Shown here piece by piece: positions 1-53,728 of a DNA stretch of 64,000 nucleotides. Position 1 is the first letter of the stretch. Every line of letters begins with the position of its first letter. The DNA is from an uncultured Acidobacteriota bacterium (lineage in GTDB: Bacteria > Acidobacteriota > Thermoanaerobaculia > Gp7-AA8): positions 32,001-96,000 of the forward strand of contig CAVUKB010000013.1 of assembly GCA_963741955.1 (NCBI GenBank), written 5' to 3'. The translations under genes and the position numbers were made by a program. The notes below the pieces were generated by a model that saw only the letters and a list, made by a program, of their open reading frames with translations, was not told the DNA's origin and searched no databases.

Positions 1-369
1 TCCGGCGGGGAGGCGCAGCGCCTCAAGCTCGCATCATTCCTGGTCGGATCGGAGCGGAGCGCCACGCACCGGCTGTTCCTGTTCGACGAGCCGACGACCG
101 GACTTCATGCGTCGGACGTGAAGCAACTGATCCGAACGTTCCGTGAGCTCATCGAGCGCGGGAACTCGATCGTGGTCATCGAGCACAACACGGACATGAT
201 CGAGGCGGCGGACTGGGTGATCGACCTCGGGCCGGAGGGGGGCGATGCGGGAGGTGAAGTCGTCGCGATCGGGACGCCTGCCGAGATCGCGAAGAATCCG
301 GCCAGCCTCACCGGACGATTCCTCTACCGCGACACGGTCGCTCACGGGGCCGGGAAGCCCGCGGCGTAA
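1..369 (+). CDS. uvrA: Excinuclease ABC subunit A, C-terminal part (5' truncated by window edge)
   Basis: Frame 1 reads [11 protein letters not shown]...[10 protein letters not shown]...VVIEHN...[24 protein letters not shown]: ABC signature, Walker B and the UvrA C-terminal DLGPEGG motif; stop TAA at 367-369. Confidence 0.92.
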
Positions 370-437
370 TTGGCCGTAAATATTCTGCGATCGGGCTTGT
401 ACGCAGAATTTAGTTCGCCCGAGCGAAGCTGTAGCGG

Positions 438-483
438 TATTTTATTCTTCTAAAGTCCTATTGGGCCAAATATTCTGTGGCTC
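438..483 (+). promoter_or_regulatory. Candidate sigma70-type promoter in AT-rich leader of the repeat array
   Basis: TTCTAA (448-453), 17 nt spacer, TATTCT (471-476), with an AT-rich stretch upstream; predicted start ~483, next to the first repeat unit at 485. Confidence 0.3.
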
Positions 484-484
484 C

Positions 485-2804
485 GCTTCCGCCACAGGCG
501 TCCTCTCGATCCGCTTCGAACGCGATTCGCGCGGCGGATCGCAAATCCGCACTTCCATGGCGCGAACGTGAGTCGCATTGAGGTGCTTGTGCGACTGATC
601 GTGCCGCCCCCTCACGGGGGCTCCCATCTGCATTCCTCGATCTCCGGACCTCCGCCTGACGGCGGAGGCTGAACGGGCTGGCGCCCTTCGGGCTCACGGG
701 CGAACCGGAGAGCCGCGATATGACGTTCCATCGTACTGAGTCTTCGGAGGCGGGTTTTCAAATCGCGCAAATGGAATCGCTGTCGAAGGACCGAACTGCA
801 CCTACCACGGAACCGGTTCGGAAGAAAGACGCCCGTTCGGTCCGTGGCAATTCGCGCAAATGGATTCGTGATCGGAGCCCCGGATCTCTCCGTTAACGCG
901 AGCGTGCTCCGGGAAGTGACGCCCGTTCCACCAATCGCAAATGCTTCCGCCACAGGCGTCCTCTCGATCCGCTTCGAACGCGATTCGCGCGGCGGATCGC
1001 AAATCCGCACTTCCATGGCGCGAACGTGAGTCGCATTGAGGTGCTTGTGCGACTGATCGTGCCGCCCCCTCACGGGGGCTCCCATCTGCATTCCTCGATC
1101 TCCGGACCTCCGCCTGACGGCGGAGGCTAAACGAGCTGGCGCCCTTCGGGCTCACGGGCGAACCGGAGAGCCGCGATGCGACGTTCCGTCGTACTGAATC
1201 TTCGGAGGCGGGTTTTCAAATCGCGCAAATGGAATCGCTGTCGAAGGACCGAACTGCACCTACCACGGAACCGGTTCGGAAGAAAGACGCCCGTTCGGTC
1301 CGTGGCAATTCACGCAAATGAAATCGTGATCGGAGCCCCGGATCTCTCCGTTAACGCGAGCGTGCTCCGGGAAGTGACGCCCGTTCCACCAATCGCAAAT
1401 GCTTCTGCCGCAGACGTCCTTTCGATCCGGTTCCGAACACGAGTCGCGCGGCCGATTGCAAATCCGCACTTCCATGGCGCGAACGTGAGTCGCATTGAGG
1501 TGCTTGTGCGACTGATCGTGCCGCCCCCTCACGGGGGCTCCCATCTGCATTCCTCGATCTCCGGACCTCCGCCTGACGGCGGAGGCTAAACGGGCTGGCG
1601 CCCTTCGGGCTCACGGGCGAACCGGAGAGCCGCGATGTGACGTTCCATCGTACTGAGTCTTCGGAGGCGGGTTTTCAAATCGCGCAAATGGAATCGCTGT
1701 CGAAGGACCGAACTGCACCTACCACGGAACCGGTTCGGAAGAAAGACGCCCGTTCGGTCCGTGGCAATTCGCGCAAATGAAATCGTGATCGGAGCCCCGG
1801 ATCTCTCCGTTAACGCGAGCGTGCTCCGGGAAGTGACGCCCGTTCCACCAATCGCAAATGCTTCTGCCGCAGACGTCCTTTCGATCCGGCTCCGAACACG
1901 AGTCGCGCGGCCGATTGCAAATCCGCACTTCCATGGCGCGAACGTGAGTCGCATTGAGGTGCTTGTGCGACTGATCGTGCCGCCCCCTCACGGGGGCTCC
2001 CATCTGCATTCCTCGATCTCCGGACCTCCGCCTGACGGCGGAGGCTAAACGGGCTGGCGCCCTTCGGGCTCACGGGCGAACCGGAGAGCCGTGATGCGAC
2101 GTTCCATCGTACTGAGTCTTCGGAGGCGGGTTTTCAAATCGCGCAATTGAAATCGCTGTCGAAGGCACGAACTGCACCGGCCACGGAAACGGTTCGGAAG
2201 AAAGACGCCCGTTCGGTCGATGGCAATTCGCGCAAATGAAATCGTGGTCGGAGCCCTGGATCTCTCCGGTTACGCAACCGTTCTCCGGGAAGAAACGCCC
2301 GTTCCAGCCACAGCAAATGCTTCTGCCGCAGACGTCCTTTCGATCCGGCTCCGAACACGAGTCGCGCGGCGGATTGCAAATCCGCACTTCCATGGCGCGA
2401 ACGTGAGTCGCATTGAGGTGCTTGTGCGACTGATCGTGCCGCCCCCTCACGGGGGCTCCCATCTGCATTCCTCGATCTCCGGACCTCCGCCTGACGGCGG
2501 AGGCTAAACGAGCTGGCGCCCTTCGGGCTCACGGGCGAACCGGAGAGCCGCGATGCGACGTTCCGTCGTACTGAATCTTCGGAGGCGGGTTTTCAAATCG
2601 CGCAAATGGAATCGCTGTCGAAGGACCGAACCGCACCGGCCACGGAACCGGTTCGGAAGAAAGACGCCCGTTCGGTCCGTGGCAATTCGCGCAAATGAAA
2701 TCGTGATCGGAGCCCCGGATCTCTCCGTTAACGCGAGCCTGCTCCGGGAAGTGACGCCCGTTCCACCAATCGCAAATGCTTCTGCCGCAGACGTCTCGTC
2801 GATC
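485..2804. repeat. Tandem array of five 458-459 bp non-coding units plus partial sixth, containing REP-like hairpins (BIME-like)
   Basis: Units at 485-942, 943-1400, 1401-1859, 1860-2318, 2319-2777 and partial 2778-~2804. Each has hairpins AGTCGCA-N12-TGCGACT, GCCCCC-tcac-GGGGGC, CCTCCGCC-tgac-GGCGGAGG and GCCC-ttc-GGGC. Confidence 0.97.
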
Positions 2805-3504
2805 AATCCGGATTCGTCGCCCAGACCGAGACCTCCGGAACGAATCCTCGATCGTCCATCTCGAGAAGAGCGGCGATGGTGTGCGCGATCTCGATGGGGC
2901 GCAGCTTTTTCTCGCTCCCCTTCCGGGAACTTCCGGAGCTGTTGAAGAACTCCGTCTGCACTTCGCTCGGATTGACCTCCATCACCCGAATCTCGTGCTT
3001 CCGAAGCTCCGCGCGCCAGCACTCGGTCATTCCTCGAAGCGCGAACTTGCTCGATGCGTACGCCGTCCCTCCGGCGAATCCGCGAAGTCCGGCAGTCGAA
3101 GCGATGTTGATGATGTTCCCGCCGCCTCGCTTCACGAAATGCCGCGCCGATTCCCGCGCCACCATCATCGCCCCGAAGACGTTCGTCGCGTAGACATCCT
3201 TCATCGCATCGAGATCCGTCTCGAGGAGCGGCGCGAAGTGGCCGAATCCTGCATTGTTGACGAGGACGTTGTAGTCCCCGAGCTGCCGGATCGATTCGGC
3301 AACCAGCCGCTCGACGTCTTCGGGCCGGGAAACGTCCGCCGCCACCGCGATCGCACCGACCGTTTTCGCTGCGGCGTTCAGCTTCGTCTCGTCGCGACCG
3401 CAGATGACGACTTTCGCTCCGCGGGACACCAGGAGCCTCGCGGTCTCCAGACCGATCCCCGAGCTCCCTCCGGTGACGAGCGCACGCACTTCTTCCAGCT
3501 TCAT
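2803..3504 (-). CDS. SDR family NAD(P)-dependent oxidoreductase
   Basis: TGGSSGIG Rossmann motif, NNAG, YASSK catalytic YxxxK; start re-set to ATG 3504 (MKLEEV) with GGAGG RBS upstream. Confidence 0.93.
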   Translation of the reverse strand: MKLEEVRALVTGGSSGIGLETARLLVSRGAKVVICGRDETKLNAAAKTVGAIAVAADVSRPEDVERLVAESIRQLGDYNVLVNNAGFGHFAPLLETDLDAMKDVYATNVFGAMMVARESARHFVKRGGGNIINIASTAGLRGFAGGTAYASSKFALRGMTECWRAELRKHEIRVMEVNPSEVQTEFFNSSGSSRKGSEKKLRPIEIAHTIAALLEMDDRGFVPEVSVWATNPD

Positions 3505-3577
3505 CTGAACCTCCTGATCTCCCCGGGAGTCTGCGCGGCAGTGATGTCCGCTGCCCACGGTTTCCGCTGTAGTCCGA

Positions 3578-3586
3578 TGTTACAAT
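3578..3586 (+). promoter_or_regulatory. Extended -10 promoter element for the OPT gene
   Basis: TG-T-TACAAT about 70 nt upstream of ATG 3655. Confidence 0.5.
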
Positions 3587-3654
3587 GCTGCGTTCGCCAG
3601 CGGTTCGGCCAATCACCAGTGCAACCCGATTTCACCCTTTGAGAGAGGGATTTC

Positions 3655-6207
3655 ATGACGACTACTGAATTACCGCCCGCCGCAGGAGGGGGAGAATCGA
3701 ACGGATCGGCTTCGCCGAAGCCGTCTCTGTTCGAGCCGTTCATCCCTGCTCGCGCCGTGATGCGCGAGCTGACGATCGGGCCCCTGATCCTCGGCACCAT
3801 CCTCGGAATGATCTTCGGAGCCTCGTCGCTGTATCTCGTTCTGAAGGTCGGACTCACCGTCAGCGCTTCGATTCCCGTCGCAGTCATCTCGATCACGCTT
3901 TTCAAGATCTTCTCCAAGCTCGGCGGAAAAGAAGCCACGATCCTCGAGAACAACATCGTGCAGACCGCCGGCTCGGCCGGTGAATCGATCGCGTTCGGCG
4001 TCGGCGTCACGATGCCCGCGATCATGATTCTCGGGTTCAATCTCGAGATCGGCCGGGTGATGATCGTTGCGGTTCTCGGCGGCCTGCTGGGAATTCTGAT
4101 GATGATCCCGCTTCGCCGCGCGCTGATCGTGCAGCAGCATGGACTCCTCAAGTATCCGGAGGGGACTGCGTGCGCGGAGGTGCTCAAGGCCGGCGCATCC
4201 CCCGAGTCGAAGGCGCAGGCTTCCGACTCGGCACGCCGCGACATCGATGCCGCAGCCGCAGCCGGAAGTGGAATCACGAGCGCGCACACGATCTTCACCG
4301 GATTCGGGATCGGCCTCGTCTACAAGGCGGCCATGGCCGCATTCAAGGCGTGGAAGGACATCCCGGAGAAGATCTTCGCGGCTCCGTTCCGCGCCGGATC
4401 CGTTTCGGCGGAGATTTCGCCCGAGCTGATGGGCGTCGGCTACATCATCGGGCCGCGCATCGCAGCGGTCATGGCCGCAGGAGGCGTCCTCGCGTACCTC
4501 GTGTTCATCCCGATGATCAAATTCTTCGGGGCCGGCGCGGGCGTGATCGCACCGGGAACCATCCCGATCGCACAGATGTCGCCGAATCAGATCCGCGGCG
4601 CGTACGTGCTGTACATCGGTGCCGGCGCCGTCGCCGCGGCAGGGATCATCAGCGTGCTTCGCGCTCTCCCGACCATCTGGCACGGCATCAAGGAAGGTCT
4701 GAAAGACGTCGGTTCCGGAACGCGTACCGCCGTCCTCGACATCCACCGGACCGAGCACGACCTGCCGATGAAGGTGGTGTTCATCGGAATCATCGCGCTG
4801 GTCATCGCGATCAGTCTCGCACCTCCCCTGGAGATGAATCCGCTCGGCGCGATCCTGATCGTCGTCTTCGGATTCCTCTTCGTCACGGTCTCCTCGCGTC
4901 TCACCGGCGAGATCGGTTCGTCGTCGAACCCGATCTCCGGGATGACGGTCGCCACGCTCCTTCTGACGTGCCTGATCTTCCTGGTGCTCGGATGGACGTC
5001 GCGACACTACTTCGTGACCGCCCTCTCGGTCGGCGCGATCGTCTGCATCGCGGCGTCGAATGGAGGCACCACTTCGCAGGACCTGAAAACCGGATTCCTG
5101 GTCGGTGCGACTCCCCGGGCCCAGCAGATCGCGATTCTGGTCGGTGCGCTCGCATCCGCGCTGGTTCTCGGACCGATCCTTCTCAAGCTCAACTCCGCGG
5201 GAACGATCTACGTTCCGCGCGAGACGTTCACCAAGGCGGATCTACAGAGCACGATCGATCCTGCCAAGGCCCAGGCACTTCCGCTCTTCCAGAACGAGAA
5301 GACCCCGGGCACCGGGCCGTATCACCTTCTGGCGGTCGGCGGTGAAGGTGAACCGACCGCGATCGCCGGCGTTCGCGCCGGGAACTATCTGGTCGACGAC
5401 AACGGGCGGATCCTGTGGCGTTACATCGAAGCGTTCCCTCCCACCCTCGTTGCACCGGCAAGCGAGATCTCGACCAAGATGGAAGGGTTGAGCGGAGCCG
5501 AGGCGAAGCTCGACAGCAACAAGTACCGCGTCTGGTTCAACACCAATACCGGCAGCGGACTCGCCGGGAAGTACCTCGTCGATGCTCAGGGTCGCGCCAT
5601 GTATCTCGTCGATCCCGGGATCAACGGCGTCTTCACCACCCGGCCCGACGGGACGACGGTGACCAAGTTCAATCCCCCCCAGGCGACGCTCATGTCGTAC
5701 ATCATCAAAGGAATTCTCAATCGTGAGCTTCCGTGGGCGCTGGTGCTCTTCGGAGTGATGATCGCGCTTGTGCTCGAGCTCTCACAGCTTCCCGCACTCG
5801 CGTTCGCTGTAGGCGTCTACCTGCCGCTCTCGTCTTCGACTCCCATTCTCGCCGGCGGTCTGATCCGGTGGGGTGTCGACCGTTACGTCCGCAACAAGTA
5901 CAAGGACGCCAATCTCACGGAAGAGCAGCTGATCGCCGAGACGGATAAGAGTCCGGGCGTGCTGATGGCGTCCGGCTATATCGCGGGCGGCGCGATCGCG
6001 GGCATCATCATCGCGTTCATGGCGGGTGGACTGAGTGATCTGGACAACCGGCTGCAGAACTGGGCAACCGCGCACAACCCGTTCTTCGCAGGGCCGTGGT
6101 CGGATCTGTTGTCGCTGATCCCGTTCGCGATCATCGGGACGGTCCTCTACCTGACCGGTCGCGAGATCATCATGGCGGGACGCAAGAAAAAGAAATCCGC
6201 GGCCTGA
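3655..6207 (+). CDS. OPT family oligopeptide transporter
   Basis: [71 protein letters not shown] motifs; many transmembrane segments. Confidence 0.93.
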
Positions 6208-6765: not shown

Positions 6766-8025
6766 TCAACGCTCTCGTATCGTCTGCGCGATCAGGTTGC
6801 CGTCCGGATCACGAAATGCTCGAATGGCCACATCCTGTCCCCGTTGGAGCTGATCGGCATGCTTGTAGCCGCCGCTGGAGGTCTGGACGACGAAGTCGCT
6901 CGAGGCGAGCACGGCAAGGACCTGTCCTGTATCGGAGTCCCGGACCTGAATCGTCGCCGAACGCTCGAGCGTCTCTTCGATCGTTCCGTAGAGCAGCACG
7001 AGCTCGTAATCGCCCGCACTTGTTTCTGAGGCGGAAGTCTCGGGCGGCGGCGGTTCGGCAGGTGGAGGGGCAGAAGCGACGACTTCTCCCGCGAAACGGA
7101 CCACGTCGGCCCGGAAAACCTTCTCCGCGTAGCGGCCGCTGATCTCCAGATGATCGCCTTTGACGAGATCGGAAACGCGGAGTGGATCACCCTTGCTGTT
7201 CACGGCGCCGCTCACGTCGACGGTGACCTCGCCGTCTCGCCCGAGGTCCATCCGGATCGCGTGCTTTTGCGGATCGATTGCGACCACTCGGCCGTGAATC
7301 GAGGTGAGGGTCCGGTTCTGCCGGACGGCGGGCGCGCTGGTCCGCACATTCTGCACGACCTCGATCGAATCCGTCCGAATCGAATTTCCAGCCGCCGCGA
7401 CGACATGCGCCCGGACGACATCGCCCTCTTCCAGATTCAGGATGTGATAGGTCGTCCCCTGGTATTGCACGGGGGTGTTGGGAGTTCCGTCGAGCGTCCA
7501 CTGCTGCCCTGCGGCGTCAATGACGACCAGATCGGAGCCTCCCTCGTCCACCGTGCGCACCGTTCCTTCGATTGTCGTTCCGGGCGCAGGTGCTTTGGCA
7601 GCGACGTTGCCGGTGATCACGCGACCGAGGAGCTGCACTCGCTCCGCACGGATGGCGTTTCCGGGGCGACCGATCCCGTCGACCCGCACGCGATCCCCCG
7701 TTTCGATTTTCCGGAAGCCTTCCGTCCCGCTGAAGACCTGACCCGGATCCGCCGTCCCGTATCCGAAGAAGCGGGTCGAGACAGGATCGGTATTCACGGT
7801 GACCTTCGCCCTCGCCTGATCGGCATCGGGAACCAGTGAGAACGCGGTGTCCCGCCCGTCGAGAGCGATCACAGTACCGACGATGGAGCCGTTCGCCTCC
7901 GGCTGAATATCGGCGGCTGTACTCCAGTCAGGTCGACCCTGTCCGAAAACGGGTACACAAAGGGTGAGAACACCGATCGCGAATCCGGCGACGAATCGGA
8001 GCGGAAACGATTGCTGCGTCTGCAT
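6766..8025 (-). CDS. Secreted DUF5666-like protein with four OB-fold-type repeats
   Basis: Signal peptide; repeated modules starting SIVGTVIALD, TIEGTVRTVD, SIHGRVVAID, LLYGTIEETL, each followed by L/I-xx-GD/GQ-x-V-x-V/I and A-x-x-I/V motifs. Confidence 0.65.
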   Translation of the reverse strand: MQTQQSFPLRFVAGFAIGVLTLCVPVFGQGRPDWSTAADIQPEANGSIVGTVIALDGRDTAFSLVPDADQARAKVTVNTDPVSTRFFGYGTADPGQVFSGTEGFRKIETGDRVRVDGIGRPGNAIRAERVQLLGRVITGNVAAKAPAPGTTIEGTVRTVDEGGSDLVVIDAAGQQWTLDGTPNTPVQYQGTTYHILNLEEGDVVRAHVVAAAGNSIRTDSIEVVQNVRTSAPAVRQNRTLTSIHGRVVAIDPQKHAIRMDLGRDGEVTVDVSGAVNSKGDPLRVSDLVKGDHLEISGRYAEKVFRADVVRFAGEVVASAPPPAEPPPPETSASETSAGDYELVLLYGTIEETLERSATIQVRDSDTGQVLAVLASSDFVVQTSSGGYKHADQLQRGQDVAIRAFRDPDGNLIAQTIRER

Positions 8026-12284: not shown

Positions 12285-12309
12285 CCATTCAGTCGTGAAC
12301 GGGCTGCGA

Positions 12310-13245
12310 TCAGACTGCAGCGCCGGTCTTCAGTTTCTCGAAGAGCTCCCGCACTGCGGCCGCAGACTTGTCGAGAGCGGCCTTCTCGTCGGCGGTGAGC
12401 TTGATCTCGATGACCTGCTCCATCCCGTCGCGACCGAGCTTGACCGGTACGCCGACGTAGAGGTCCTTCAGCCCGTATTCTCCGGTGAGATACGCGGCAC
12501 ACGGAAGGATCTTCTTCTTGTCTTTGAGGATCGCCTCGACCATCTCCGCTGCAGCGGACGAGGGAGCGTACCAGGCGGACGTCTTCAGCAGATTCACGAT
12601 CTCCGCCCCGCCGCTGCGGGTCCGATCGACGATCGCGTCGATCCGTTCCTTCGAGATGAGCTCCGTGATCGGGACACCCGCGACCGTCGAATAGCGCGGC
12701 AGAGGCACCATCGTGTCTCCGTGTCCTCCGAGCACGAACGCGTGGGTGTTCTCGACCGACACGTTCAATTCCATCGCGATGAACGCACGCATGCGCGCCG
12801 AGTCGAGGACTCCGGCCATGCCGATCACGCGCTCGCGGGGGAAGCCCGAAACACGCCGCGCCACTTCGCACATCGCGTCCAGCGGGTTCGAGACGATGAT
12901 CAGAATTGCCTTGGGGCTTCGCTTCGCGACCTGCTCGGTCACCGAGGCGACGATCTCTTCGTTCTTCCAGAGAAGGTCGTCACGACTCATTCCGGGTTTT
13001 CTCGGGAGCCCCGCCGTGATCACGATGATGTCCGATCCCGCCGTCTCGTCGTAGGTGTTCGTGCCGATCATGTGCGCGTCGAATTTCTCGACCGGCGCGG
13101 CTTCGAGCATGTCGAGCGTCTTTCCCTGCGGGACGCCTTCGACGATGTCGACCAGTACGACGTCTGCAAGTTCTTTTTCTGCGATCCGCTGACCGAGCGT
13201 GGCCCCGACGTTGCCCGCTCCGACTACGGTAACTTTCGTTTTCAT
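12310..13245 (-). CDS. mdh: Malate dehydrogenase (LDH-like)
   Basis: [47 protein letters not shown]; GGAGG RBS. Confidence 0.96.
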
Positions 13246-13441
13246 GTCGTCCTCCAGCTATCGGGAGAGTAGCGGGGCGATTCTATCGCAGAGGGACTCG
13301 TTTTCAACCGCCCCGGCGATGGAGATCTCGAGCTCGTCTCCTTCGTTCCTGATGATTTTTTCAGCAGTCACTCGATGCACCGCTCCCCCGCCGCTCGAGC
13401 TCAGCTGGCACCCGGTTCGCTCGTACCGGGTCGGATTCTTC

Positions 13442-19740: not shown

Positions 19741-20166
19741 TCAACGTCTGCCCGCCACCTGGATGCGGGTGATCGACTCGTCGAGTTTTGCCTGTGCGAG
19801 TGCGAATCCCTCATCGTGGGAGGCGAGCGAAGCTAGTTCCCGCTCGGCGTCCAGCTTCTCGCGCTCCGCCGCGTCCACATCGATGTGCTCGAGTTCGTAC
19901 GCGTCCTCTGCCAGAACAATGACCCGATTGGGAAGGATTTCCGCGAACCCGAATTTCGCGACGAGGTAGTGAGAACGCTCTCCGACCCGGTACATCAGCT
20001 CGCCGACGCGCAGGCTGGCGAGCAGAGGGGTGTGGCCGGGAAGAATGCCCATGTACCCCTTCGCGGCCGGGATGAGTACCTCGTCGGCTTCGACTTCGAG
20101 GACTTTCCGCTCCCGAGTCACCACGGTCAGGAGCAGCGTCGCCGGGATTCTGGTCGCCTCGGCCAT
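19741..20166 (-). CDS. atpC: ATP synthase F1 epsilon subunit
   Basis: GYMGILPGHTPLL, GFAEI; last gene of the atp cluster. Confidence 0.93.
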   Translation of the reverse strand: MAEATRIPATLLLTVVTRERKVLEVEADEVLIPAAKGYMGILPGHTPLLASLRVGELMYRVGERSHYLVAKFGFAEILPNRVIVLAEDAYELEHIDVDAAEREKLDAERELASLASHDEGFALAQAKLDESITRIQVAGRR

Positions 20167-20167
20167 G

Positions 20168-21643
<1,476 letters not shown>

Positions 21644-22495
21644 CTATCCGAGCGCCGCAGCGCCCGAAACGATTTCGATGATCTCTTTGGTGATCGAAGC
21701 CTGCCGGATGCGGTTGTACGTGAGAGTGAGGCTGTCGATCACGTCGGTCGCATTCCTCGTCGCAGCTTCCATCGCCGTCATCCGTGCCGCCTGCTCGGCG
21801 GCCGCGGATTCCAGCAGCGCGCGGTAGATCTGGAACTCCACGAACTTCGGCAGGAGCTGCCGGAGAATCTCTTCCGGTGAAGGTTCGTAGAGATAGTCCA
21901 TCTCGACCGACGCTTCGGCGGTGTCGCGCATCAGCGGAAGGAGGCGCTCCATACGGACGATCTGCTGGATGACGGACTTGAACTCGTTGTAGACGACGTA
22001 GACCGCGTCGATCTTCTCGTCCTGGTAGTCGCCGATGATGACCCGGGCCAGATCGCGCGCCACTTCCGGCGTCATCGCCTGCATGATGTTGACGGCCTGA
22101 TACCGGATCGGCCAGTCGCGCCGGCGAAAATAGTCGTTGGCTTTGCGGCCGATCGGCAACAGAGCGGCTTCGTCCCACTCCTCGGTGACCAGCGCGTTCT
22201 GTGCGGCTCGGATCACGTTGCCATTGAACGCTCCACAGAGGCCCTTGTCCGCGGTCACCACGAGCACGAGGACACGCCGCTCGTCCCGGACGTGCAGGAG
22301 CGGATGGTCGGCGCGAACCCGGCTGGCGACGGAACGGAGAACCTCCTGAAGCGCGCCCGCATAAGGGCGGGCGGAGACGATCCGTTCCTGTGCACGGCGA
22401 AGCTTCGCGGCTGCGACCATCTTCATCGCCTTGGTGATCTGCTGTGTGTTGCGGACGCTTCGTATGCGCCGCCGTATGTCGATCGTACTCGGCAC
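21644..22495 (-). CDS. atpG: ATP synthase F1 gamma subunit
   Basis: ITKAMKMVAAAKL, DKGLCG, RQASITKEIIEIVSGA. Confidence 0.98.
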   Translation of the reverse strand: MPSTIDIRRRIRSVRNTQQITKAMKMVAAAKLRRAQERIVSARPYAGALQEVLRSVASRVRADHPLLHVRDERRVLVLVVTADKGLCGAFNGNVIRAAQNALVTEEWDEAALLPIGRKANDYFRRRDWPIRYQAVNIMQAMTPEVARDLARVIIGDYQDEKIDAVYVVYNEFKSVIQQIVRMERLLPLMRDTAEASVEMDYLYEPSPEEILRQLLPKFVEFQIYRALLESAAAEQAARMTAMEAATRNATDVIDSLTLTYNRIRQASITKEIIEIVSGAAALG

Positions 22496-26483: not shown

Positions 26484-26870
26484 CTACGACGACTTGTGGA
26501 TACTCTTGAGACCGGCCACGGCGACGGGAACTTCGCGCTCCGCCATGGAGCAGCTTCCCTGAAAGGTCGCGCCTTCTTCGATGATCAGAGTCGGGGTATC
26601 GATGTCGCTGAAGACGTGGCCGCTGCGATGAATCTCGATGCGGTCATCGGCTTTGATCCGGCCGACGACGGTCCCGCTGATCGCGATACGGCCGACGTGG
26701 ATCTCCCCTTCGATACTGGCGCTTTCTCCGACGATCAGCTCGTTCTTGGAAAAAATCTTTCCGTTGAACTTCCCGTCGATGCGCATCGTGTCCTCGAATT
26801 CGAGCTCGCCGCGGAATGACGATCCGCGATCGAGAAATCCGTTCAGTTCACCACCGTTCTTCGGCTTCAT
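26484..26870 (-). CDS. Bactofilin (polymer-forming cytoskeletal protein)
   Basis: Beta-solenoid repeats FRGELEFEDTMRIDGKFNGKI...LIIEEGATFQGSC; ATGA overlap with parB. Confidence 0.9.
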   Translation of the reverse strand: MKPKNGGELNGFLDRGSSFRGELEFEDTMRIDGKFNGKIFSKNELIVGESASIEGEIHVGRIAISGTVVGRIKADDRIEIHRSGHVFSDIDTPTLIIEEGATFQGSCSMAEREVPVAVAGLKSIHKSS

Positions 26871-27718
26871 CGTTTTCTCCCACTCCCGGTCAGCTCTTCG
26901 TACAGACGGATCAACTCATCCTCGCTTGAAAAAGTCACTCTGATCTCGCCTCCCCGGCGCTTCCGCTCGATCGCGACCTTCGCCCGGAGAGAACGGGTCA
27001 GTTTCTCTTCGGCATCACGAGTAAAGACGTCCTTCAGCTTCTCGGGTTTTTTCGCTGCAGAAGGAGCGCCCGAGACGAGGTGCTCCGTCTGACGCACATT
27101 GAGATCATTCTTGATCACCCGATCAGCAAGCGTCTCGATTTTACGAGGTTCTTCGACACTCAGAAGCGCACGTGCGTGCCCCATCGAGAGCTGGCCGGCC
27201 GCGACCATCTTCTTCACGCGCTCCGGGAGGCGGAGGAGCCGGAGAAAATTCGCCACCGTCGGGCGTTCCTTGCCGACGCGTTTCGCGATCTCTTCCTGGG
27301 TGAGGCCGAACTCGTCGTGGAGCTGTTGATACGCGACGGCTTCTTCCATCGGATTCAGATCTTCGCGCTGAATGTTTTCAATGAGTGCGAGCTGGAGAGC
27401 CTGGCCGCTCTGCACGAGCTCTTTCACGACCACCGGGACGGTTTTCAGTCCGGCCTTCTGGCTTGCGCGAAACCGCCGCTCGCCTGCGATCAGCTGGTAG
27501 CGCGAATCGCCGCTCCTCGTGACTACGAGAGGCTGTACGACGCCGTTCTCGCGAATGCTCCGCGCCAGCGATTCGAGTGCGGCCTCGTCAAAAGTCTTTC
27601 GTGGCTGGTCCGGATTCGGGATGATCCGCTCGATCGGAACTTCGAGCAGACCGGCTCCCTCTTCCTTCTGAGGAATGAGAGCCCCGAGTCCACGGCCGAG
27701 CACTCGTTTTTGCGCCAA
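26867..27718 (-). CDS. parB: Chromosome partitioning protein ParB
   Basis: LGRGLGALI, PNPDQPRK, IAGERRFRA, LIENIQREDLNP, HTH. Confidence 0.97.
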   Translation of the reverse strand: MAQKRVLGRGLGALIPQKEEGAGLLEVPIERIIPNPDQPRKTFDEAALESLARSIRENGVVQPLVVTRSGDSRYQLIAGERRFRASQKAGLKTVPVVVKELVQSGQALQLALIENIQREDLNPMEEAVAYQQLHDEFGLTQEEIAKRVGKERPTVANFLRLLRLPERVKKMVAAGQLSMGHARALLSVEEPRKIETLADRVIKNDLNVRQTEHLVSGAPSAAKKPEKLKDVFTRDAEEKLTRSLRAKVAIERKRRGGEIRVTFSSEDELIRLYEELTGSGRKR

Positions 27719-27724: not shown

Positions 27725-28504
27725 TTACCCCACGTCGATGACGGTTTCGGCTCTCTTTATAAACTCTTGAGCCAATTGAAGATAGGACTCACTGCCCCTC
27801 GATCTTATGTCGTACAGGATGATCGGCTTACCGAACGAAGGAGCCTCTCCCAGCCGGACGTTCCGCGGTACTACGGTCTGGTACACCTTCTCCCCGAAAT
27901 AGCTCCTGATCTCTTCGGAGACCTGGCGAGCGAGGTTGATGCGTTCATCGTACATCGTCAGGGCGATTCCCTCGATCTCGAGAGAGGGGTTCAAAGACGT
28001 CTGTACCCGCTCAATGGTGTTGACCAGCTGAGAGATTCCCTCCAGAGCGAAGTACTCACACTGCACCGGAACCACGACCGAATCCGCAGCCACGAGTCCG
28101 TTCACCGTCAGAAGACCGAGTGAAGGAGGTGAGTCGATGAAGATGTAGTCGTACTCTTCACGAATCGGCGCGAGTACGTCCGCAAGCCGGAACTCCCGGC
28201 GATCACCCTCCGAGAGCTCGATCTCCGCGGCTACGAGATCGACGGACGATGGCGCGATGTGAAGCATAGGGAGCTCGGTCTCCTGAATGATGCTCCGAAT
28301 CGCCTGCCCCGCGACCAGGACCGGGTACATCGAATCGCGGCTGTTTTTCGGAAGTCCGACTCCCGAGGTGGCGTTCGCCTGAGGATCGAGGTCGACCAGG
28401 AGGACTCGCCGGTCACATACGGCGACCGACGCTCCGAGATTGATCGCGGTGGTGGTCTTGCCCACACCACCTTTCTGGTTCGCGAGAGATACGATCTTCG
28501 CCAT
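27725..28504 (-). CDS. parA: Chromosome partitioning ATPase ParA/Soj
   Basis: NQKGGVGKTT, DLDPQANATSG, IDSPPSLG, PRNVRLGEAPSFG. Confidence 0.97.
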   Translation of the reverse strand: MAKIVSLANQKGGVGKTTTAINLGASVAVCDRRVLLVDLDPQANATSGVGLPKNSRDSMYPVLVAGQAIRSIIQETELPMLHIAPSSVDLVAAEIELSEGDRREFRLADVLAPIREEYDYIFIDSPPSLGLLTVNGLVAADSVVVPVQCEYFALEGISQLVNTIERVQTSLNPSLEIEGIALTMYDERINLARQVSEEIRSYFGEKVYQTVVPRNVRLGEAPSFGKPIILYDIRSRGSESYLQLAQEFIKRAETVIDVG

Positions 28505-28505
28505 C

Positions 28506-28521
28506 TGTTTCACGTGGAACG
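28506..28521. promoter_or_regulatory. parS centromere site
   Basis: TGTTTCACGTGGAACG versus consensus TGTTTCACGTGAAACA; overlaps the rsmG stop, 1 nt from the parA ATG. Confidence 0.88.
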
Positions 28522-30958: not shown

Positions 30959-30974
30959 GGTTCCACGTGAAACA
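30959..30974. promoter_or_regulatory. parS centromere site
   Basis: GGTTCCACGTGAAACA; fills the entire 16 bp gap between mnmE and mnmG. Confidence 0.9.
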
Positions 30975-35846: not shown

Positions 35847-35877
35847 TTTTCCACAATTGTGGAAAAGTTGTGGAATC
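35847..35877. promoter_or_regulatory. DnaA boxes upstream of dnaA
   Basis: TTTTCCACA (35847-55), TGTGGAAAA (35858-66), TGTGGAATC (35869-77). Confidence 0.8.
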
Positions 35878-35899
35878 TCTAAAGGATAGCCCCCCCGGT

Positions 35900-37210
35900 A
35901 TGAATCTCTGGAACCAGGTCCTCAGCCGGCTTGAAGAGCGACTCGATGCGGCGGAATTCGAGCAATGGTTCCAGCCGACGCACTTCCTCGCCGAGAAGGG
36001 CGACATCATCGACGTCCGGGTTCCCGATTCCCGTTTCGTGGACGAAATCACGGAGCGCTACGGCCGCGCGATCCGCGGAATTCTTTCCGAAATGGATTCC
36101 GACCGGACCCGGATCCAGTTCGTCGCCGACGCCACCGCTCCGAAAAGACAGACCTCGAGTCAGGTCAAAGTCTCCCCGGCCGCCGATCTTCCTCCTTCGA
36201 TCTTCAATCCCCGATACACCTTTTCCACCTTCGTGGTCGGAAATTCGAATCAGCTCGCCTACGCCGCCTCCCTATCGATCGCCGAGAACCCGAGCGGTTC
36301 CTTCAACCCGCTCTTCATTTACGGCGGCGCGGGGCTCGGGAAAACCCATCTGATCCAGGCCATCGGTCAAAAGATCTTCCGGGGACGGGAGCAGATGAAG
36401 GTCGTCTACATGTCAGCCGACAACTTCGTCACCGAGTTGATCTCGTCGATCCGCTATGACCGGATGGCGGCTTTCCGGGAAAGATACCGCTCCGTCGACG
36501 CTCTCCTTCTCGACGACATCCAGTTCCTGGCCGGGAAGGAACGGACGCAGGAGGAGTTCTTCCATACGTTCAACGCCCTGTACGAAGCCCAGAAACAGAT
36601 CGTCTTCACCTCGGATGCTCCACCACGCGAAATACCGACGCTCGAGGAGCGCCTCCGCTCGCGTTTCGAATGGGGGCTGATCGCAGACATCCAACCCCCC
36701 GATATCGAGACGAAGGTCGCGATCATCCGGAAGAAGGCGGAGGAACGACGGATCGATCTGTCGGACGACGTGGCGCTCTTCATCGCCGAGCGAGTGCGCT
36801 CGAACGTGCGGGAGCTCGAGGGGCATCTGAATCGGGTCGTCGCTTTCGCGTCGTTGACCGGACATACCATCGATCTCGATCTGACGAAAGAAGCACTCCG
36901 GGACCTCCTCGCCAAGGAAAACAAGCCGATCACCGGGAGCGAGATCCTGAAGGTGGTCGCAAATCACTACGGAATCAAGGTGGCCGAGTTGAAGTCGAAG
37001 TCGAACTCGCGACCCATCGCCTACCCTCGTCAGATCGCGATGTTTCTCTGTAAATCGCTGACGGACCTCTCGTACCCGGAGATCGGAAAACTCTTCAACA
37101 ACAAGCATCACTCCACCGTGATCTACTCCGTCGAGAAAATCGACCGGTTGAAGGAAGAGGATCCTGCCGTCGCGAATACCGTCGAAATGCTGATCAAGCA
37201 CTTTCGATGA
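35900..37210 (+). CDS. dnaA: Chromosomal replication initiator DnaA
   Basis: YTFSTFVVGNSN, NPLFIYGGAGLGKTHL, LLLDDIQF, RLRSRFEWGL, KHHSTVIY. Confidence 0.98.
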   Translation: MNLWNQVLSRLEERLDAAEFEQWFQPTHFLAEKGDIIDVRVPDSRFVDEITERYGRAIRGILSEMDSDRTRIQFVADATAPKRQTSSQVKVSPAADLPPSIFNPRYTFSTFVVGNSNQLAYAASLSIAENPSGSFNPLFIYGGAGLGKTHLIQAIGQKIFRGREQMKVVYMSADNFVTELISSIRYDRMAAFRERYRSVDALLLDDIQFLAGKERTQEEFFHTFNALYEAQKQIVFTSDAPPREIPTLEERLRSRFEWGLIADIQPPDIETKVAIIRKKAEERRIDLSDDVALFIAERVRSNVRELEGHLNRVVAFASLTGHTIDLDLTKEALRDLLAKENKPITGSEILKVVANHYGIKVAELKSKSNSRPIAYPRQIAMFLCKSLTDLSYPEIGKLFNNKHHSTVIYSVEKIDRLKEEDPAVANTVEMLIKHFR

Positions 37211-37485: not shown

Positions 37486-38613
37486 ATGGAGCTGAGCGTC
37501 GCGAAAGCCGATCTGCAGAAGGAACTGCAACTCTGTCAGGGCGTGGTCGAGAAGCGATCGACCATCCCGATACTCTCGAATGTCCTGATCCGTGCCGCCG
37601 GTGATCGTCTCGAGATCGCGGCGACGGACCTCGATGTGACTCTGGAGAGTTCGTGTCCGGCGCGAGTGAAAACCGAGGGAGGGATGACCGTCGAAGCGCG
37701 CCGCTTCTTCGACGTCGTGCGTTCGTTACCGGACGATGAAGTCAAGCTCACCCTCCAGGAAAACCTCTCGCTTCTGATCGAGTCGGGGAGTGCGAAGTTC
37801 CGCCTTCTCGGTCTTCCTGTCGAGGACTATCCGACGCTTCCGAAGATCTCGACGAAGGAGAGTTTCGAAGCGCCGTTCGACGATCTGAAGACGATGGTCG
37901 AGAAGGTGATCTTCGCGATCACCCACGAAGAGACTCGATTCCAGCTCAACGGTGCGTTGCTCAAGATCGACGGGAACAAACTGGAGATGGTCGCGACGGA
38001 TGGCCACCGAATGGCGCTGGTCAACGTGCAGAGTGGAGGCGGGAAGAACGGGAAGAAGGAAGGCATGACGATCCTCGTCCCGAGAAAAGCCCTTCACGAG
38101 CTGACTCGTCTCGAGGCGGAAGAGGATGACGGGAAAGTCCGGTTCGGGACTGCGGACAATCATCTCTTCTTCGAGGTCGGTCCGCGACGTCTGATGGCGC
38201 GGATGATCGACGTGAATTTTCCGAACTACATGGAAGTCATCGCTCGCGACAACGACCGCAAGATCGTGGTGGATCGGGAGAGACTTCTTTCGACCATCCG
38301 TCGCATCTCGCTCGTCGCGAACGAGCGGACTCGCGCGATCCGTTTCGATTTCGGGCCGGGCAAACTGACCGTCTCGTCGACGAACCCGGAGCTCGGCGAC
38401 GCGCGAGAGACCGTGCCGATCGAGTACTCCGGAGACCCGTTCTACATCGGACTCAATGCGGCGTATCTCACCGATTTTCTCGGAGTCGTCGATACCCAGA
38501 ACATCTCCCTCGAGCTCAAGGACGAGAACAGCCAGTGCATCGGCCGCCCATTCGCCGCGGATGGACTCGAATACGACTACCTGTACGTCGTGATGCCGAT
38601 GCGGATCTCCTGA
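37486..38613 (+). CDS. dnaN: DNA polymerase III beta clamp
   Basis: STIPILSNVL, ATDLD, VATDGHRMA, FPNY, YVVMPMR. Confidence 0.97.
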   Translation: MELSVAKADLQKELQLCQGVVEKRSTIPILSNVLIRAAGDRLEIAATDLDVTLESSCPARVKTEGGMTVEARRFFDVVRSLPDDEVKLTLQENLSLLIESGSAKFRLLGLPVEDYPTLPKISTKESFEAPFDDLKTMVEKVIFAITHEETRFQLNGALLKIDGNKLEMVATDGHRMALVNVQSGGGKNGKKEGMTILVPRKALHELTRLEAEEDDGKVRFGTADNHLFFEVGPRRLMARMIDVNFPNYMEVIARDNDRKIVVDRERLLSTIRRISLVANERTRAIRFDFGPGKLTVSSTNPELGDARETVPIEYSGDPFYIGLNAAYLTDFLGVVDTQNISLELKDENSQCIGRPFAADGLEYDYLYVVMPMRIS

Positions 38614-38619
38614 CGCTCC

Positions 38620-39732
38620 GTGATCCTCGATTCGCTGAAGGTTCGCCAGTTCCGGAATCTCGACGATCAGGATCTGGAGTTTCATCCTCGGGCGAACCTT
38701 TTCGTCGGCGACAACGGCCAGGGAAAGACGAACTTTCTCGAAGCGATCTACTTCCTCGCGACGACCAAGTCCTTCCGGACGTCGAAAACGGCGAATCTCG
38801 TGCGGCTCGGCGCCGATCGGGTTTTCGCGGCCGGCACCTTCACCGCCGAGCGGGTCGTGAGGTCGCTCTCGATCGGGATCGACCTGGCGCACCAGAGGAG
38901 ACGAGAGCTCCAGATCAATGGCCAGAAAGCGCGGCTGCACGACTATCTCGACCTGATTCACCCCTTCGCCTATTCCGCCGCCCGGCTGGAGATCATCCGC
39001 GGAGGTCCCGAGGAGAGACGGAGATTTCTCGATCGCGGGATCGCGTCACTCCGAACGGGCCACCTGGCGCATCTGACCAGGTATCAGAAGGCACTCCAGC
39101 AACGGAATGCGCTCCTGCGTGAGATCGGCGAAGGACGGGGAGGGAAGCGGAGCCTCGATTCGTGGGACGTGGAGCTGGTCGAAGCGGCAGCGCCCATCGT
39201 CGCGGCACGAGCGAGCTATGTCGAAAAACTGGTCCGGAGATTCCGCCAGGTGGTCGAGGCCCACGACTACCACGTCAGGGACCTCGAGATCGGCTACGAG
39301 CCGGCAGGGATGAGTGGGAACCGGGAGGAGGATCTCGCGCTGCTGGAGCGGACGCGGAGCAGGGACGTCGGTGCCGGATTCACGACCACCGGGCCACATC
39401 GGGACAACGTCGCGATCACGATCCGGTCGATTCCCGCGGACGAGTTCCTCTCCAGCGGAGAGACGAAGATGACGGTACTCTTTCTGAAGCTCTCGAAAAT
39501 CGAGCTTTACCGGGACGAGCGCCAGGACGCACCGATCTTCGTACTCGATGATATCGACGCCGAGCTCGACATCCGGATTCTCCGACGGCTGTTCGGTTAC
39601 ATCCTCGATTCGACGCAACTGTTCACGAGCTCGGCCAAGGAGATTTTCTTTCGCGAATTCTCGCTCGGGGCGCACCGCAAATTCACGCTCGAGAAGGGGG
39701 CGGTAACCGGGCGGGACGACGCGTCGGCGTGA
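38620..39732 (+). CDS. recF: DNA replication/repair protein RecF
   Basis: GDNGQGKTNFLEAI, GPEERRRFLD, GPHRD, LDDIDAELD. Confidence 0.94.
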   Translation: MILDSLKVRQFRNLDDQDLEFHPRANLFVGDNGQGKTNFLEAIYFLATTKSFRTSKTANLVRLGADRVFAAGTFTAERVVRSLSIGIDLAHQRRRELQINGQKARLHDYLDLIHPFAYSAARLEIIRGGPEERRRFLDRGIASLRTGHLAHLTRYQKALQQRNALLREIGEGRGGKRSLDSWDVELVEAAAPIVAARASYVEKLVRRFRQVVEAHDYHVRDLEIGYEPAGMSGNREEDLALLERTRSRDVGAGFTTTGPHRDNVAITIRSIPADEFLSSGETKMTVLFLKLSKIELYRDERQDAPIFVLDDIDAELDIRILRRLFGYILDSTQLFTSSAKEIFFREFSLGAHRKFTLEKGAVTGRDDASA

Positions 39733-39928: not shown

Positions 39929-42328
<2,400 letters not shown>

Positions 42329-42355
42329 TCGAGCTCCCGCGAAGCAGAGTCACGA

Positions 42356-44890
42356 ATGTCCGATATCAATACTTCGAACGAACAGAGAATCCCCGTCAAT
42401 ATCGAAGACGAGATGCGCCGGTCGTATCTCGACTACGCGATGTCCGTCATCATCGGGCGCGCGCTTCCCGACGTACGCGACGGGCTCAAACCGGTCCATC
42501 GACGGATTCTCTACGGGATGTACGAGCAGGGAAACACCGCGAGCAAGGCGTACAAGAAGTCCGCCCGCATCGTCGGTGACGTGATGGGTAAGTTCCACCC
42601 TCACGGCGACAGTGCCATCTACGACACCGTCGTCCGGATGGCGCAGGACTTTTCCATGCGCTACCCGCTGATCGACGGGCAGGGGAACTTCGGATCGATC
42701 GACGGCGACAACGCCGCCGCCATGCGGTACACGGAAGTCCGCCTCACGAAGCTCGCCGAGGAGCTCCTTCGCGACGACATCGAGAAGGAGACCGTCGACT
42801 GGGTACCCAACTACGACGGCTCTCTCGAAGAGCCAGCCGTTCTTCCCGCCAAGTTCCCGAACCTTCTGGTCAACGGTGCCTCCGGGATCGCGGTCGGAAT
42901 GGCCACCAACATTCCCCCCCACAACATCGGGGAGGTGATCGATGCCTGTCTCCAGATGATCGAGAACCCCTCGATCACGACACTCGAGCTGATGAAGGTC
43001 CTCCCCGGCCCCGATTTTCCGACCGCGGGCTTCATCCACGGCATCGACGGGATTCGGGACGCGTACGAGACCGGCCGCGGCATCATCCAGCTCCGGGCTC
43101 GGGCCGAGATCGAGGAGATGGCGAAGAGCGAGCGTCAGGCCATCGTGGTCACCGAGATCCCGTTCATGACCAACAAAGCTCGTCTGATCGAGAAGATCGC
43201 CGAGCTGGTCCGGGACAAGCGGATCGACGGAATCTCGGATCTTCGAGACGAGTCCGATCGCGATGGAATCCGGATCGTCATCGAGCTCAAACGGGGTGAA
43301 GTCGGCGAGGTCGTTCTCAACAACCTCTACAAGAACACCCAGATGCAGACGACGTTCGGAATCATTTTCCTGGCGATCGTCGACAACCAGCCGCAGGTCC
43401 TCGGCCTCCGCGAGATGCTCCGCCATTTCATCGATCACCGTAAAGAGATCGTGATCAGACGGACTCGGTTCGAACTGCGCAAGGCCGAGGAGCGGGCCCA
43501 CATCCTCGAAGGTCTCACCCGCGCACTCGATCACCTCGATGAGGTCATCGCCCTGATCCGGTCGAGCGACTCACCCGATACGGCGAAGAGCGGCCTGATC
43601 GAGCGCTTCGACTTTTCCGCCATCCAGGCGCAGGCGATCCTCGACATGCGCCTGCAGCGCCTGACCAGTCTGGAGCGGGACAAGGTCGTCCGCGAGTACG
43701 AGGAGATTCTCGCCACGATTCAGAGGCTGAAGGAGATTCTCGGCTCCGAAGCGAAAATTCTCGAAATCATCGCCGGCGAGCTCTCCGAGATCAAGCGGCT
43801 CTACGGTGACGAGCGCCGGACCGAGATCATCCCGGAGATGTCCGACATCACGATCGAGGACATGATCGCCGAAGAAGACATGGTGATCACCGTCTCGCGT
43901 GGTGGCTACATCAAACGGTCCCCCCTCTCGCTCTATCGCGAGCAGAAGCGGGGCGGAAAAGGTCGGATCGGGATGGTCCCGAAGGAAGAGGACCTCGTTC
44001 AGCATCTGTTCGTCGCCTCCACGCACTCGTACATCCTCGTCTTCACCGATCGCGGAAGGCTTCACTGGCTCAAAGTTCACACCATCCCGGAGGTCAGTCC
44101 CTCAGCGAGAGGAAAGGCGATCGTCAATCTTCTCGAGGTCCAGGAAGGCGAGAGCGTCCGCGCCCTTCTCACGGTGAAAGACTTCACCGAAGCCGAGTAC
44201 GTCGTGATGGCGACGAGGAACGGCCGGATCAAGAAGACCGCGCTCTCCGCCTTCTCGAATCCGCGCGCGGCCGGGATCATCGCCATCGACATCAACGAAG
44301 GTGATGACCTCTACAGCGTGCAGCTCAGCGACGGCCAGTCGGAGATCTTCCTTGGAACCCACGACGGAAAGGCGATCCGATTCCGCGAGAGCGACGTCCG
44401 ACCGATGGGTCGCGGAGCCGCCGGCGTCAAGGGCATCACTCTTCGAGACGGCGACTCCCTGGTGGAGATGGACGTACTCACGGCCGCTTCCGCAGGGGAG
44501 ATCCTCACCATCACGGAGAACGGGTTCGGGAAGAGGACGGCGATCGACGAATACCGACTTCAGTCGCGCGGCGGATCGGGAGTGATCAACATCCGCACCA
44601 CTGAAAAGAACGGGAAAGTCGCGGCAATCCTCTGCGTGTCCGAGCAGGATCAGGTGCTTCTGATCACGCGCCAGGGGAAGATCATTCGAGTTGGCTGCGG
44701 GACGATTCGTTCCACGGGGCGCTCGACTCAGGGAGTGCGGGTCATCAATATCGACGAAGGTGACGCGGTCGTCGCTGCAGTGAAGGTCGTGGAAGAAGAA
44801 TCGGACGAAGAAGTGTCTCCCGACATCGAACAGGAAGAGCCCGGAAACGAGTCGGCGCTCCTCAATGACGACGACGAGACGGTGCACTGA
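42356..44890 (+). CDS. gyrA: DNA gyrase subunit A
   Basis: [32 protein letters not shown], GyrA box QKRGGKG, beta-pinwheel repeats. Confidence 0.98.
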
Positions 44891-52668: not shown

Positions 52669-52777
52669 TTCCATGATCCTACCAGACCACCTCCCGCGGC
52701 CTCGCCTATCCGTTTACGGACAGACGGTCCGAAGAGTTTCGCGGTGCGACCGCACCGGGCACGTCGCCCGAACCCGC

Positions 52778-53662: not shown

Positions 53663-53675
53663 GAGATCGTCCGGG

Positions 53676-53705: not shown

Positions 53706-53728
53706 CCGGATCTCGGGAGATCGACGAC

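Follow-up and report, generated by a model that had tools for sequence, protein, structure and literature searches.

We analysed a stretch of 64,000 nucleotides (nt), here called the window, from an uncultured Acidobacteriota bacterium (GenBank assembly GCA_963741955.1, contig CAVUKB010000013.1, positions 32,001 to 96,000). Close to its left end, between the converging genes uvrA and a short-chain dehydrogenase (SDR), lies the tandem array of long repeat units that is the subject of this work (Table 1). For positions 485-2795, Tandem Repeats Finder gives a period of 459, 5.0 copies, 95% matches and a score of 4188. This result, the alignment of the units and the right end at 2804 all agree with the extent given in a preliminary description of the locus, namely five units and part of a sixth at 485-2804; by alignment, the sixth extends over 27 nt. 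Anchored on a conserved word, the units measure 458, 458, 459, 459 and 459 nt and are 91.7-98.0% identical in pairwise comparison. The incomplete sixth unit runs two bases into the stop codon of the SDR gene (2803-2805). Similarity to the unit is not significant either in the left flank (370-484; 172 of 300 shuffles score as well) or in the right flank beyond 2804 (75 of 300 shuffles).

Table 1. Features of the array and of the genes that border it. Positions are those of the window; columns are those of the five-unit alignment.
Feature	Position	Strand	Remarks
3' end of uvrA	1..369	+	last 122 codons, stop at 367-369; phmmer against solved structures
Terminator-like hairpin after uvrA	382..415	+	8-bp stem (382-389/402-409), 12-nt loop, then TTAGTT
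Unit 1	485..942	none	458 nt
Unit 2	943..1400	none	458 nt
Unit 3	1401..1859	none	459 nt
Unit 4	1860..2318	none	459 nt; most diverged unit
Unit 5	2319..2777	none	459 nt
Partial sixth unit	2778..2804		27 nt; local alignment: 18 identical bases, then 6/9
Invariant core	541..670 (unit 1), 999-1128, 1458-1587, 1917-2046, 2376-2505		130 nt, columns 58-187
Low-variation domain	1458..1675 (unit 3)	+	columns 58-275; elsewhere 541-758, 999-1216, 1917-2134, 2376-2593
Lineage-specific segment	1428..1664 (unit 3)		columns 28-264; tblastn with eight relatives
Family-conserved module	1665..1886		columns 265-459 of unit 3 and 1-27 of unit 4; two 89-nt sub-repeats
Motif copy, type CAAATCGCGCAAATGGAATCG	1676..1696	+	also at 759, 1217, 2135, 2594
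Motif copy, type CAATTCGCGCAAATGAAATCG	1765..1785	+	89 nt after the first type; also at 848, 1306, 2224, 2683
SDR gene	2803..3503	-	convergent with uvrA; Pfam adh_short 4.7e-54

The 459-bp unit is built of two parts. Comparison with related sequences on other contigs separates a module of about 222 bp that is conserved in the family from a hairpin-rich segment of 237 bp that is specific to this lineage and contains an invariant core. The two sub-repeats of the module (columns 276-355 and 365-445) are 67% identical (E 8e-6), and the repeat families D2 and D3 likewise recur at 89-90 nt. Each unit holds two copies, 89 nt apart, of an A/T-rich motif of 21 nt, CAA[A/T]TCGCGCAAATG[G/A]A[A/T]TCG, which is not palindromic and includes two ATTTG words 9 nt apart. 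A pattern search of the window returned 10 matches, all in the array, where 0 were expected by chance. By the same search the other 61 kb of the window have no copy of the motif, which is therefore not a general regulatory site. No match to the motif strings was found in a text search of the literature, about 1.7 million PubMed Central (PMC) articles and all subscription journals being outside the scope of that search.

To look for relatives, an open reading frame (ORF) of the array, 2070-2468 on the minus strand, was used as probe in a full HMMER search of representative proteins. The 10 matches comprised the window's own ORF, five related repeat ORFs and four unrelated proteins. The related ORFs (P0006, P0009, P0010, P0011 and P0014) are unnamed and have obvious internal repeats. 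P0007, P0008, P0012 and P0013 were rejected as relatives, being genuine long surface repeat proteins that match via short Cys/Trp/Gly words. A second search, with P0014 as query, added P0015, P0016 and P0017. All eight relatives are singletons. Five of them share a contig of 544,001 nt, and P0009, P0014 and P0016 are on contigs of 705,193, 1,299,627 and 14,374 nt. These four contigs appear to come from species other than that of the window, whose AtpA and OPT proteins stand alone in their 90% clusters and whose TopA has a 74-residue fragment as its only cluster-mate.

All eight relatives match the outer module of our unit (columns 265-459 plus 1-27) in tblastn, with E-values from 6e-5 to 1e-39. 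The best of these, residues 5-78 of P0006 against the module at 1665..1886, has 77% identity over 74 residues (E 1e-39), which we estimate to correspond to about 90% identity at the DNA level. Columns 28-264 have no convincing counterpart in the eight relatives by the same method (best E 0.003; P0006, 0.29). As judged from these alignments, the part that is conserved in other genomes is the flanking module with the 21-nt motif and not the hairpin core. The earlier view of the array as an orphan thus applies to the core, for which there is no convincing match, and fails for the rest of the unit. In other words, the family keeps the motif and some 220 bp around it across what appear to be different species, and the segment between differs. 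Monomers in the relatives are about 86-92 nt long, as measured by peptide spacings, and are combined into larger units of about 258 (P0009), 234 (P0010), 195 (P0011) and 348 (P0006) nt. Within single ORFs, one DNA word turns up in three reading frames (as FICAIC, FARF and LRDL) and also reversed (as QIAQM), which fits a non-coding repeat with a period that is not a multiple of 3.

Other searches found no relatives. A word-based protein search with the minus-strand ORF 612-1091 finds only itself, and the plus-strand ORF 1176-1589 has no protein relatives; there was no match in plasmids and phages by blastn with the unit and the outer module, nor in plasmids by tblastn with P0014. We also considered a model in which columns 64-275 are an insertion and the CAAAT direct repeats that flank them a target duplication. 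We dropped this boundary, since 11-12 nt on its inner side are shared by P0006.

The array is not protein-coding. The preliminary description held that no ORF runs through the units; ORFs do cross them, up to 159 amino acids (480 nt), and coding behaviour is what they lack. Every frame is broken by stops and by two 1-nt length changes, the two 458-nt units shifting the frame. Variable columns are spread 16/13/15 over the codon phases (44 columns, with the gap column omitted). Some 25 base changes separate units 3 and 4, and in the frame with the fewest stops they lead to about 15 residue changes. The GC content by codon position is flat in the array, at 0.64/0.57/0.66 compared with about 0.65/0.45/0.78 in the real genes of the window, and Pfam, even at E<=10, returns no match for five array ORFs.

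We nevertheless weighed the possibility that the minus strand carries a repeat-protein gene, either decayed or recoded, with 153 codons per unit and one TGA each in units 4 and 5. Arguing for such a gene, the period in three units is 459 = 3 x 153, minus frame 2 has just one or two stops per 153-codon unit, and in every unit this frame has GGAGATCGAGGAA, a word like a ribosome-binding site, before an ATG, as well as a CXXCH word. Moreover, the 159-residue ORF has been called as a gene, and the related ORFs are long, up to 641 amino acids. Counter to this, we estimate that one or two stops per 153 codons would occur by chance in about one third of cases, given six frames and 62% GC. The variable sites have no codon-phase bias, the frequent residue changes and flat codon-position GC are not those of a gene, and the Pfam search was empty. 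The relatives, unlike a real protein repeat, read one DNA motif in three frames within one ORF. We find a coding origin hardly credible.

The 159-residue ORF (612-1091, minus strand) is present in a public protein collection as a predicted protein, P0005. Both P0005 and the 641-residue P0009 are likely annotation artefacts of non-coding repeats. Gene callers turn arrays of this type into 'hypothetical proteins' of up to 641 amino acids, and the spurious ORFs can in turn be used as probes for related non-coding DNA. The motif and the eight ORF identifiers (P0006, P0009, P0010, P0011 and P0014-P0017) provide an experimental handle on the family.

Variation among the units indicates that they have not evolved independently. 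Of the 459 alignment columns, 45 vary. The minor-variant groups {1,2}, {2,5}, {4,5} and {3,4} are mutually incompatible on one tree, and because they cannot fit one tree the units must have exchanged tracts with each other. Exact runs of 130-256 nt are common to different units. Just upstream of the core, in columns 6-57 (window 485-541), a block has been replaced: within these 52 nt, 9 columns and a 1-nt indel distinguish units 1-2 from units 3-5, compared with a divergence of about 1% outside the block. By this replacement the 11-nt palindrome CGCCACAGGCG becomes another, TCTGCCGCAGA, shifted by 2 nt.

We interpret the array as a two-level (higher-order) non-coding satellite that belongs to a small family present in several genomes and that was amplified and homogenised by exchange. 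We assign this reading a probability of roughly 55%, a figure that covers the plain satellite description and includes the chance that the motif is functional. That the array has no function at all has roughly one chance in three. As in a satellite, the copies are non-coding and run head to tail, with diverged monomers (67%) inside uniform units (92-98%). Related arrays, as befits a satellite family, are represented by 8 ORFs on 4 contigs, seen through their translations. An old array of monomers of about 86-90 nt may have given rise to a unit of three to four monomers, in which one monomer would have been replaced or expanded by the hairpin-rich segment. The resulting 459-bp unit could then have been amplified five-fold via unequal recombination or replication slippage between units, which gene conversion would since have kept similar. 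With lower confidence, we suggest that the array disturbs nothing at its site between two converging gene ends, where inert DNA would be least harmful.

Several points weigh against the satellite reading. The level of conservation seen in P0006 exceeds that of a neutral satellite between genomes whose AtpA proteins are less than 90% identical, which argues for function or for recent transfer and not for drift; the possible incompleteness of the other genomes weakens this argument from conservation across contigs. The invariance of the core and its good fold on the plus strand, described below, fit a functional RNA at least as well. The arrays of the relatives are inferred from ORF translations only, and the five ORFs on the 544,001-nt contig could represent one locus or several. 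Finally, the copy number rests on the assembly, with exact runs of up to 256 nt common to the units.

This last point raises the question of an assembly artefact, in which the repeat is real and its copy number or unit order is wrong. The exact runs of 130-256 nt that units share are longer than a short read, which makes the copy number hard to fix without long reads. However, the five units carry distinct, ordered patterns of variants, and a collapse would lower the number of copies rather than create them. The array is also surrounded by ordinary chromosome sequence, and the genes on both sides are intact. That the repeat type is real is shown by the related arrays, which lie on four other contigs (14 kb to 1.3 Mb). 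We consider an artefact of this kind very unlikely.

If the satellite reading is correct, the array is a new family of an already known kind, the long-repeat non-coding satellites of prokaryotes, which are known but rare. Higher-order repeats in eukaryotic satellites consist of diverged monomers within larger, more uniform units and have mosaic variants. Our array resembles them in its monomers (67% alike), its units (92-98% alike) and its mosaic exchange, and differs in having five units, in its location in a bacterial intergenic gap and in lacking any connection with a centromere. Mycobacterial interspersed repetitive units (MIRU) are tandem repeats of 40-100 bp that are found at several intergenic loci and begin at the stop codon of the upstream gene. 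The abutment of our array on the SDR stop codon is similar, but the coupling of reading frames that characterizes MIRU is not seen here because the frames are broken; this comparison was made by description only. Subirana and Messeguer (2019; PMC6749651), who surveyed 261 reference genomes, found dispersed families of long-repeat non-coding satellites in just two species, Leptospira interrogans and Methanocella conradii. These satellites are, like ours, head-to-tail non-coding repeats longer than 30 nt, with a period that need not be a multiple of 3, and occur in more than one place. They are 37-69 nt long and confined to one species, whereas our family has monomers of about 86-92 nt nested in units of 195-459 nt and spans contigs that apparently belong to different species.

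Variation is spread unevenly along the unit. Only 7 of the 218 columns in 58-275 vary, compared with 38 of the 241 columns outside (Fisher 3.2e-6), and of the 21 private differences of unit 4 just 1 falls within columns 58-275. Columns 58-187 have 0 variable columns, and the core of about 130 nt previously described as identical in all five units is indeed so at every equivalent of 541-670. This invariance is non-random: the largest invariant run, of 131 columns, was equalled in 1 of 200,000 random placements of 45 sites (P ~5e-6). Either purifying selection on a folded transcript or a conversion tract could be responsible, and five copies cannot separate the two. The four stem-loops that had been noted are all present as described, at 571-596 (7-bp stem, 12-nt loop), 606-621 (6-bp stem, loop TCAC), 649-668 (8-bp stem, loop TGAC) and 683-693 (4-bp stem, 3-nt loop), with the first three inside the core itself.

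Folding predictions favour the plus strand. The region 1458-1680 (columns 58-280) has a z-score of -3.47, with 0 of 200 shuffles folding as well, compared with -1.71 for the minus strand and -1.52 with single-stranded DNA parameters. In a blind scan of 16 windows per strand it again came out best (-3.13, the next being -2.06). The ends of the segment were chosen after seeing a fold, and once the 32 windows are corrected for, the z-score is no more than marginal. The segment occupies the same place as the low-variation domain, its two ends pairing with each other (columns 60-67 with 268-275) and TTTT coming next. Folds of the whole unit are unremarkable (z -1.60 on the plus strand and -1.00 on the minus strand). 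In helix 233-237/246-250, three single-side changes keep G-U pairing, on the plus strand only, and one change (A-C, in unit 1) breaks a pair. The covariation check gave no support: alignment folding of the units yielded compensatory changes in 0 of 139 pairs (plus) and 1 of 149 (minus), with an unfavourable covariation term on both strands, as five near-identical copies could hardly show any. Rfam 15 at E<=10 had 0 matches on either strand of 300-3000. Consensus-type searches of 300-3700 found 0 sigma-70-like promoters and 0 terminators. A sigma-54 site is absent from four of the five units, the sole match being a site with 2 mismatches in unit 4.

These observations bear on the possibility that the array consists of tandem small-RNA genes, each unit giving rise to an RNA from the plus strand, about 215 nt long (columns 58-275), that an end-to-end helix closes and UUUU follows, or else to part of a long transcript that is cut at the A/U-rich motif linkers. 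The plus-strand fold is the best of the 32 windows, coincides with the low-variation domain, exceeds the folds of the minus strand and of single-stranded DNA, and is accompanied by G-U-keeping changes that make sense on the plus strand only. Against it stand the broken A-C pair in unit 1, the lack of an Rfam match and of promoter or terminator consensus, the ordinary folds of whole units and the absence of compensatory support. To these must be added the marginal z-score with ends picked post hoc, and the fact that the part that folds is the part that is not conserved in relatives. We regard small-RNA genes as a tentative alternative, with a modest chance of being correct. The earlier suggestion of a structured RNA array therefore holds to the extent of the plus-strand fold and falls short in Rfam matches, covariation and the minus-strand fold. 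Any RNA would come from the plus strand, not from the strand that the preliminary description had read. A tandem array of small RNAs, NsiR1, has reportedly been described in heterocystous cyanobacteria (by Ionescu et al. in 2010), with a unit several times shorter than the 459-bp unit. The logic would be shared if the present units were transcribed. NsiR1 has demonstrated transcripts and regulators (PMC6596454); in our array, consensus searches gave neither a promoter nor a terminator.

The hairpins had been taken as a possible sign of repetitive extragenic palindromic (REP) sequences, or a bacterial interspersed mosaic element (BIME) composed of them, moved in trans by a Y1 transposase. According to PMC3733652, REPs are palindromes of 20-40 bp in high copy number, most of them tagged with GTAG or CGTC at one end, often linked to a REP-associated tyrosine transposase (RAYT), and prefer sites between convergent genes; the same paper states that miniature inverted-repeat transposable elements (MITEs) fold well as RNA. 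Our hairpins are short palindromes of 16-26 nt, yet they make up no more than portions of a 459-bp unit. When three of the hairpins were searched for in the 64-kb window with up to 3 mismatches allowed, each gave 5 matches, all inside the array. There is no dispersed repeat family in 2850-64000, and blastn of the unit against the other 61 kb returns nothing beyond one chance match of 28 nt. No GTAG or CGTC tag was found at the hairpins checked (649-668 and 606-621); 649-668 is flanked by TCCGGA and CT[G/A]AAC. The TTAG tetranucleotide previously placed beside the 649-668 hairpin sits on the first variable column (188) and is TCAG in unit 1. Among the 56 window ORFs scanned with Pfam, several of which have no match at all, no transposase, reverse-transcriptase, Cas or integrase family was found, in agreement with the earlier statement that the window has no transposase, reverse transcriptase or cas gene. 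With no dispersed copies, tag or transposase in the window, the proposal of a REP/BIME array mobilized in trans is not upheld.

Looking beyond the window, we searched species-representative genomes for the 20-nt hairpin 649-668 and found 46 loci, each with one match that shares 20-31 nt with the unit. The loci belong to many phyla, mostly unrelated, and no related array is among them. The sharing of 20-31 nt only, in unrelated phyla, indicates that a GC hairpin of this type arises often. The exact 20-nt hairpin is present at five loci of one Bryobacteraceae metagenome-assembled genome (L034, L012, L013, L021 and L024). L021 and L024 are identical over 4020 nt though on two contigs, and because these two are identical 4-kb stretches four of the five loci are distinct. 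At L034 (1866-1888, 2001-2020) the hairpins form an inverted doublet about 110 nt apart, with GGCGTCTA beside each. Judged from this arrangement, the hairpin sequence does behave like a CGTC-type REP in the Bryobacteraceae genome.

A REP/BIME- or MITE-type element, in which a transposase of the IS200/IS605 family (RAYT), encoded elsewhere, would recognise the hairpins and the cluster would have been amplified in trans, is therefore not without points in its favour. Besides the Bryobacteraceae loci with their tagged inverted doublet, the array lies between convergent genes, as REPs prefer, and its core folds well as RNA, as MITEs do (PMC3733652). However, the hairpins are confined to the array with no dispersed family in the remaining 61 kb, neither tag occurs at the 649-668 flanks, the 46 loci share just 20-31 nt and are mostly in unrelated phyla, the window has no transposase, and the unit is more than ten times the size of a REP. 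We judge such an element very improbable. Compared with BIME and REP clusters (PMC3733652), our array has in common a mosaic, extragenic cluster of GC hairpins between convergent genes with conserved motifs between the hairpins; it differs from those dispersed and tagged elements in having no tag and no dispersed copy in 61 kb. A further difference is that the conserved element of our family is a non-palindromic A/T-rich motif and not a hairpin.

Two other types of array were considered and rejected. In a CRISPR array, which comes with cas genes, unique spacers separate short repeats; here the whole unit repeats without unique spacers, and no Cas family was found among the scanned ORFs. Integron cassette arrays go with an intI gene, and the core-site consensus of their attC sites is RYYYAAC / GTTRRRY. 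By inspection the unit has no GTT followed by three purines, and no integrase family was found.

The persistence of the 21-nt motif on contigs of apparently different species suggests that a trans-acting factor recognises it; this might be a protein that binds DNA or RNA, or else the machinery by which the repeat spreads. One form of this idea is that the array is a set of protein-binding sites on DNA, with the motif every 81-92 nt loading a DNA-binding protein, so that the array would act like a centromere, as a decoy or, near the origin, as a nucleoid-organising site. No other feature is so widely shared in the family as the motif, which is not palindromic, the surrounding module is not predicted to fold (z +1.6 to -1.4), P0016 has extra copies of the 9-nt word (ICAICAICAI), and dnaA is 33 kb away from the array, the nearest parS-like site 26 kb. 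On the other hand, the motif has no candidate binding protein and is unlike parS and the DnaA box, neither of which occurs in the array in consensus searches, the spacing (81, 89, 63 nt) is not helix-phased, and the other 61 kb are devoid of the motif. We view binding-site arrays of this kind as quite unlikely.

A broader possibility is a class of conserved bacterial genomic element that has not been described, in which a motif of about 21 nt every 86-92 nt would be bound by a dedicated factor and the segments between motifs would be exchangeable cargo, here the 237-nt hairpin-rich segment, whose expression as a structured RNA would keep it invariant. Under this scenario, which we consider unlikely, the array would not be junk; it would serve as a scaffold, either for producing or presenting structured RNAs specific to a lineage or for binding a chromosome-organising protein.

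The genes that border the array are those that had been named. The product of 1-369 matches UvrA chains of solved structures in phmmer (E 3.5e-63 to 5e-46) with the C-termini aligned, although this fragment has no Pfam match, and the gene on the other side, in convergent orientation, belongs to the adh_short family of Pfam. The E-value of 4.7e-54 was obtained on the reading 2803-3558; the SDR start at ATG 3503 was picked by inspection and has AGGAGG before it. A 251-residue version of the SDR with a GTG start has no entry in the protein collection. The hairpin that follows uvrA is not flagged by the consensus terminator scan, which requires 5 T in 8. In the left spacer, the word AAATATTCTG is found twice, at 378-387 and 468-477. 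These copies are 90 nt apart, which is near the sub-repeat period, and the first belongs to the terminator-like hairpin. The pair may be due to chance, since the alignment of flank and unit is not significant.

More than a dozen sizeable ORFs of the window have no Pfam match at the thresholds used, including 6766-8025, 12295-13272, 20030-21880, 37726-38961 and 52673-54577, and one has DUF5666 only. A tRNA-Asn (GTT) at 48261-48336 is the sole Rfam match in the window at gathering scores. The window also includes the chromosomal origin region, with parB (26867-27718), parA (27725-28513), mnmG, mnmE, jag, yidC and dnaA (35870-37210), followed by gyrB and gyrA (39944-44890). Two parS-like sites, at 28506-28521 and 30959-30974, have 1-2 mismatches to the consensus. 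Just upstream of dnaA, at 35847-35866, two TTTTCCACA words similar to DnaA boxes face each other.

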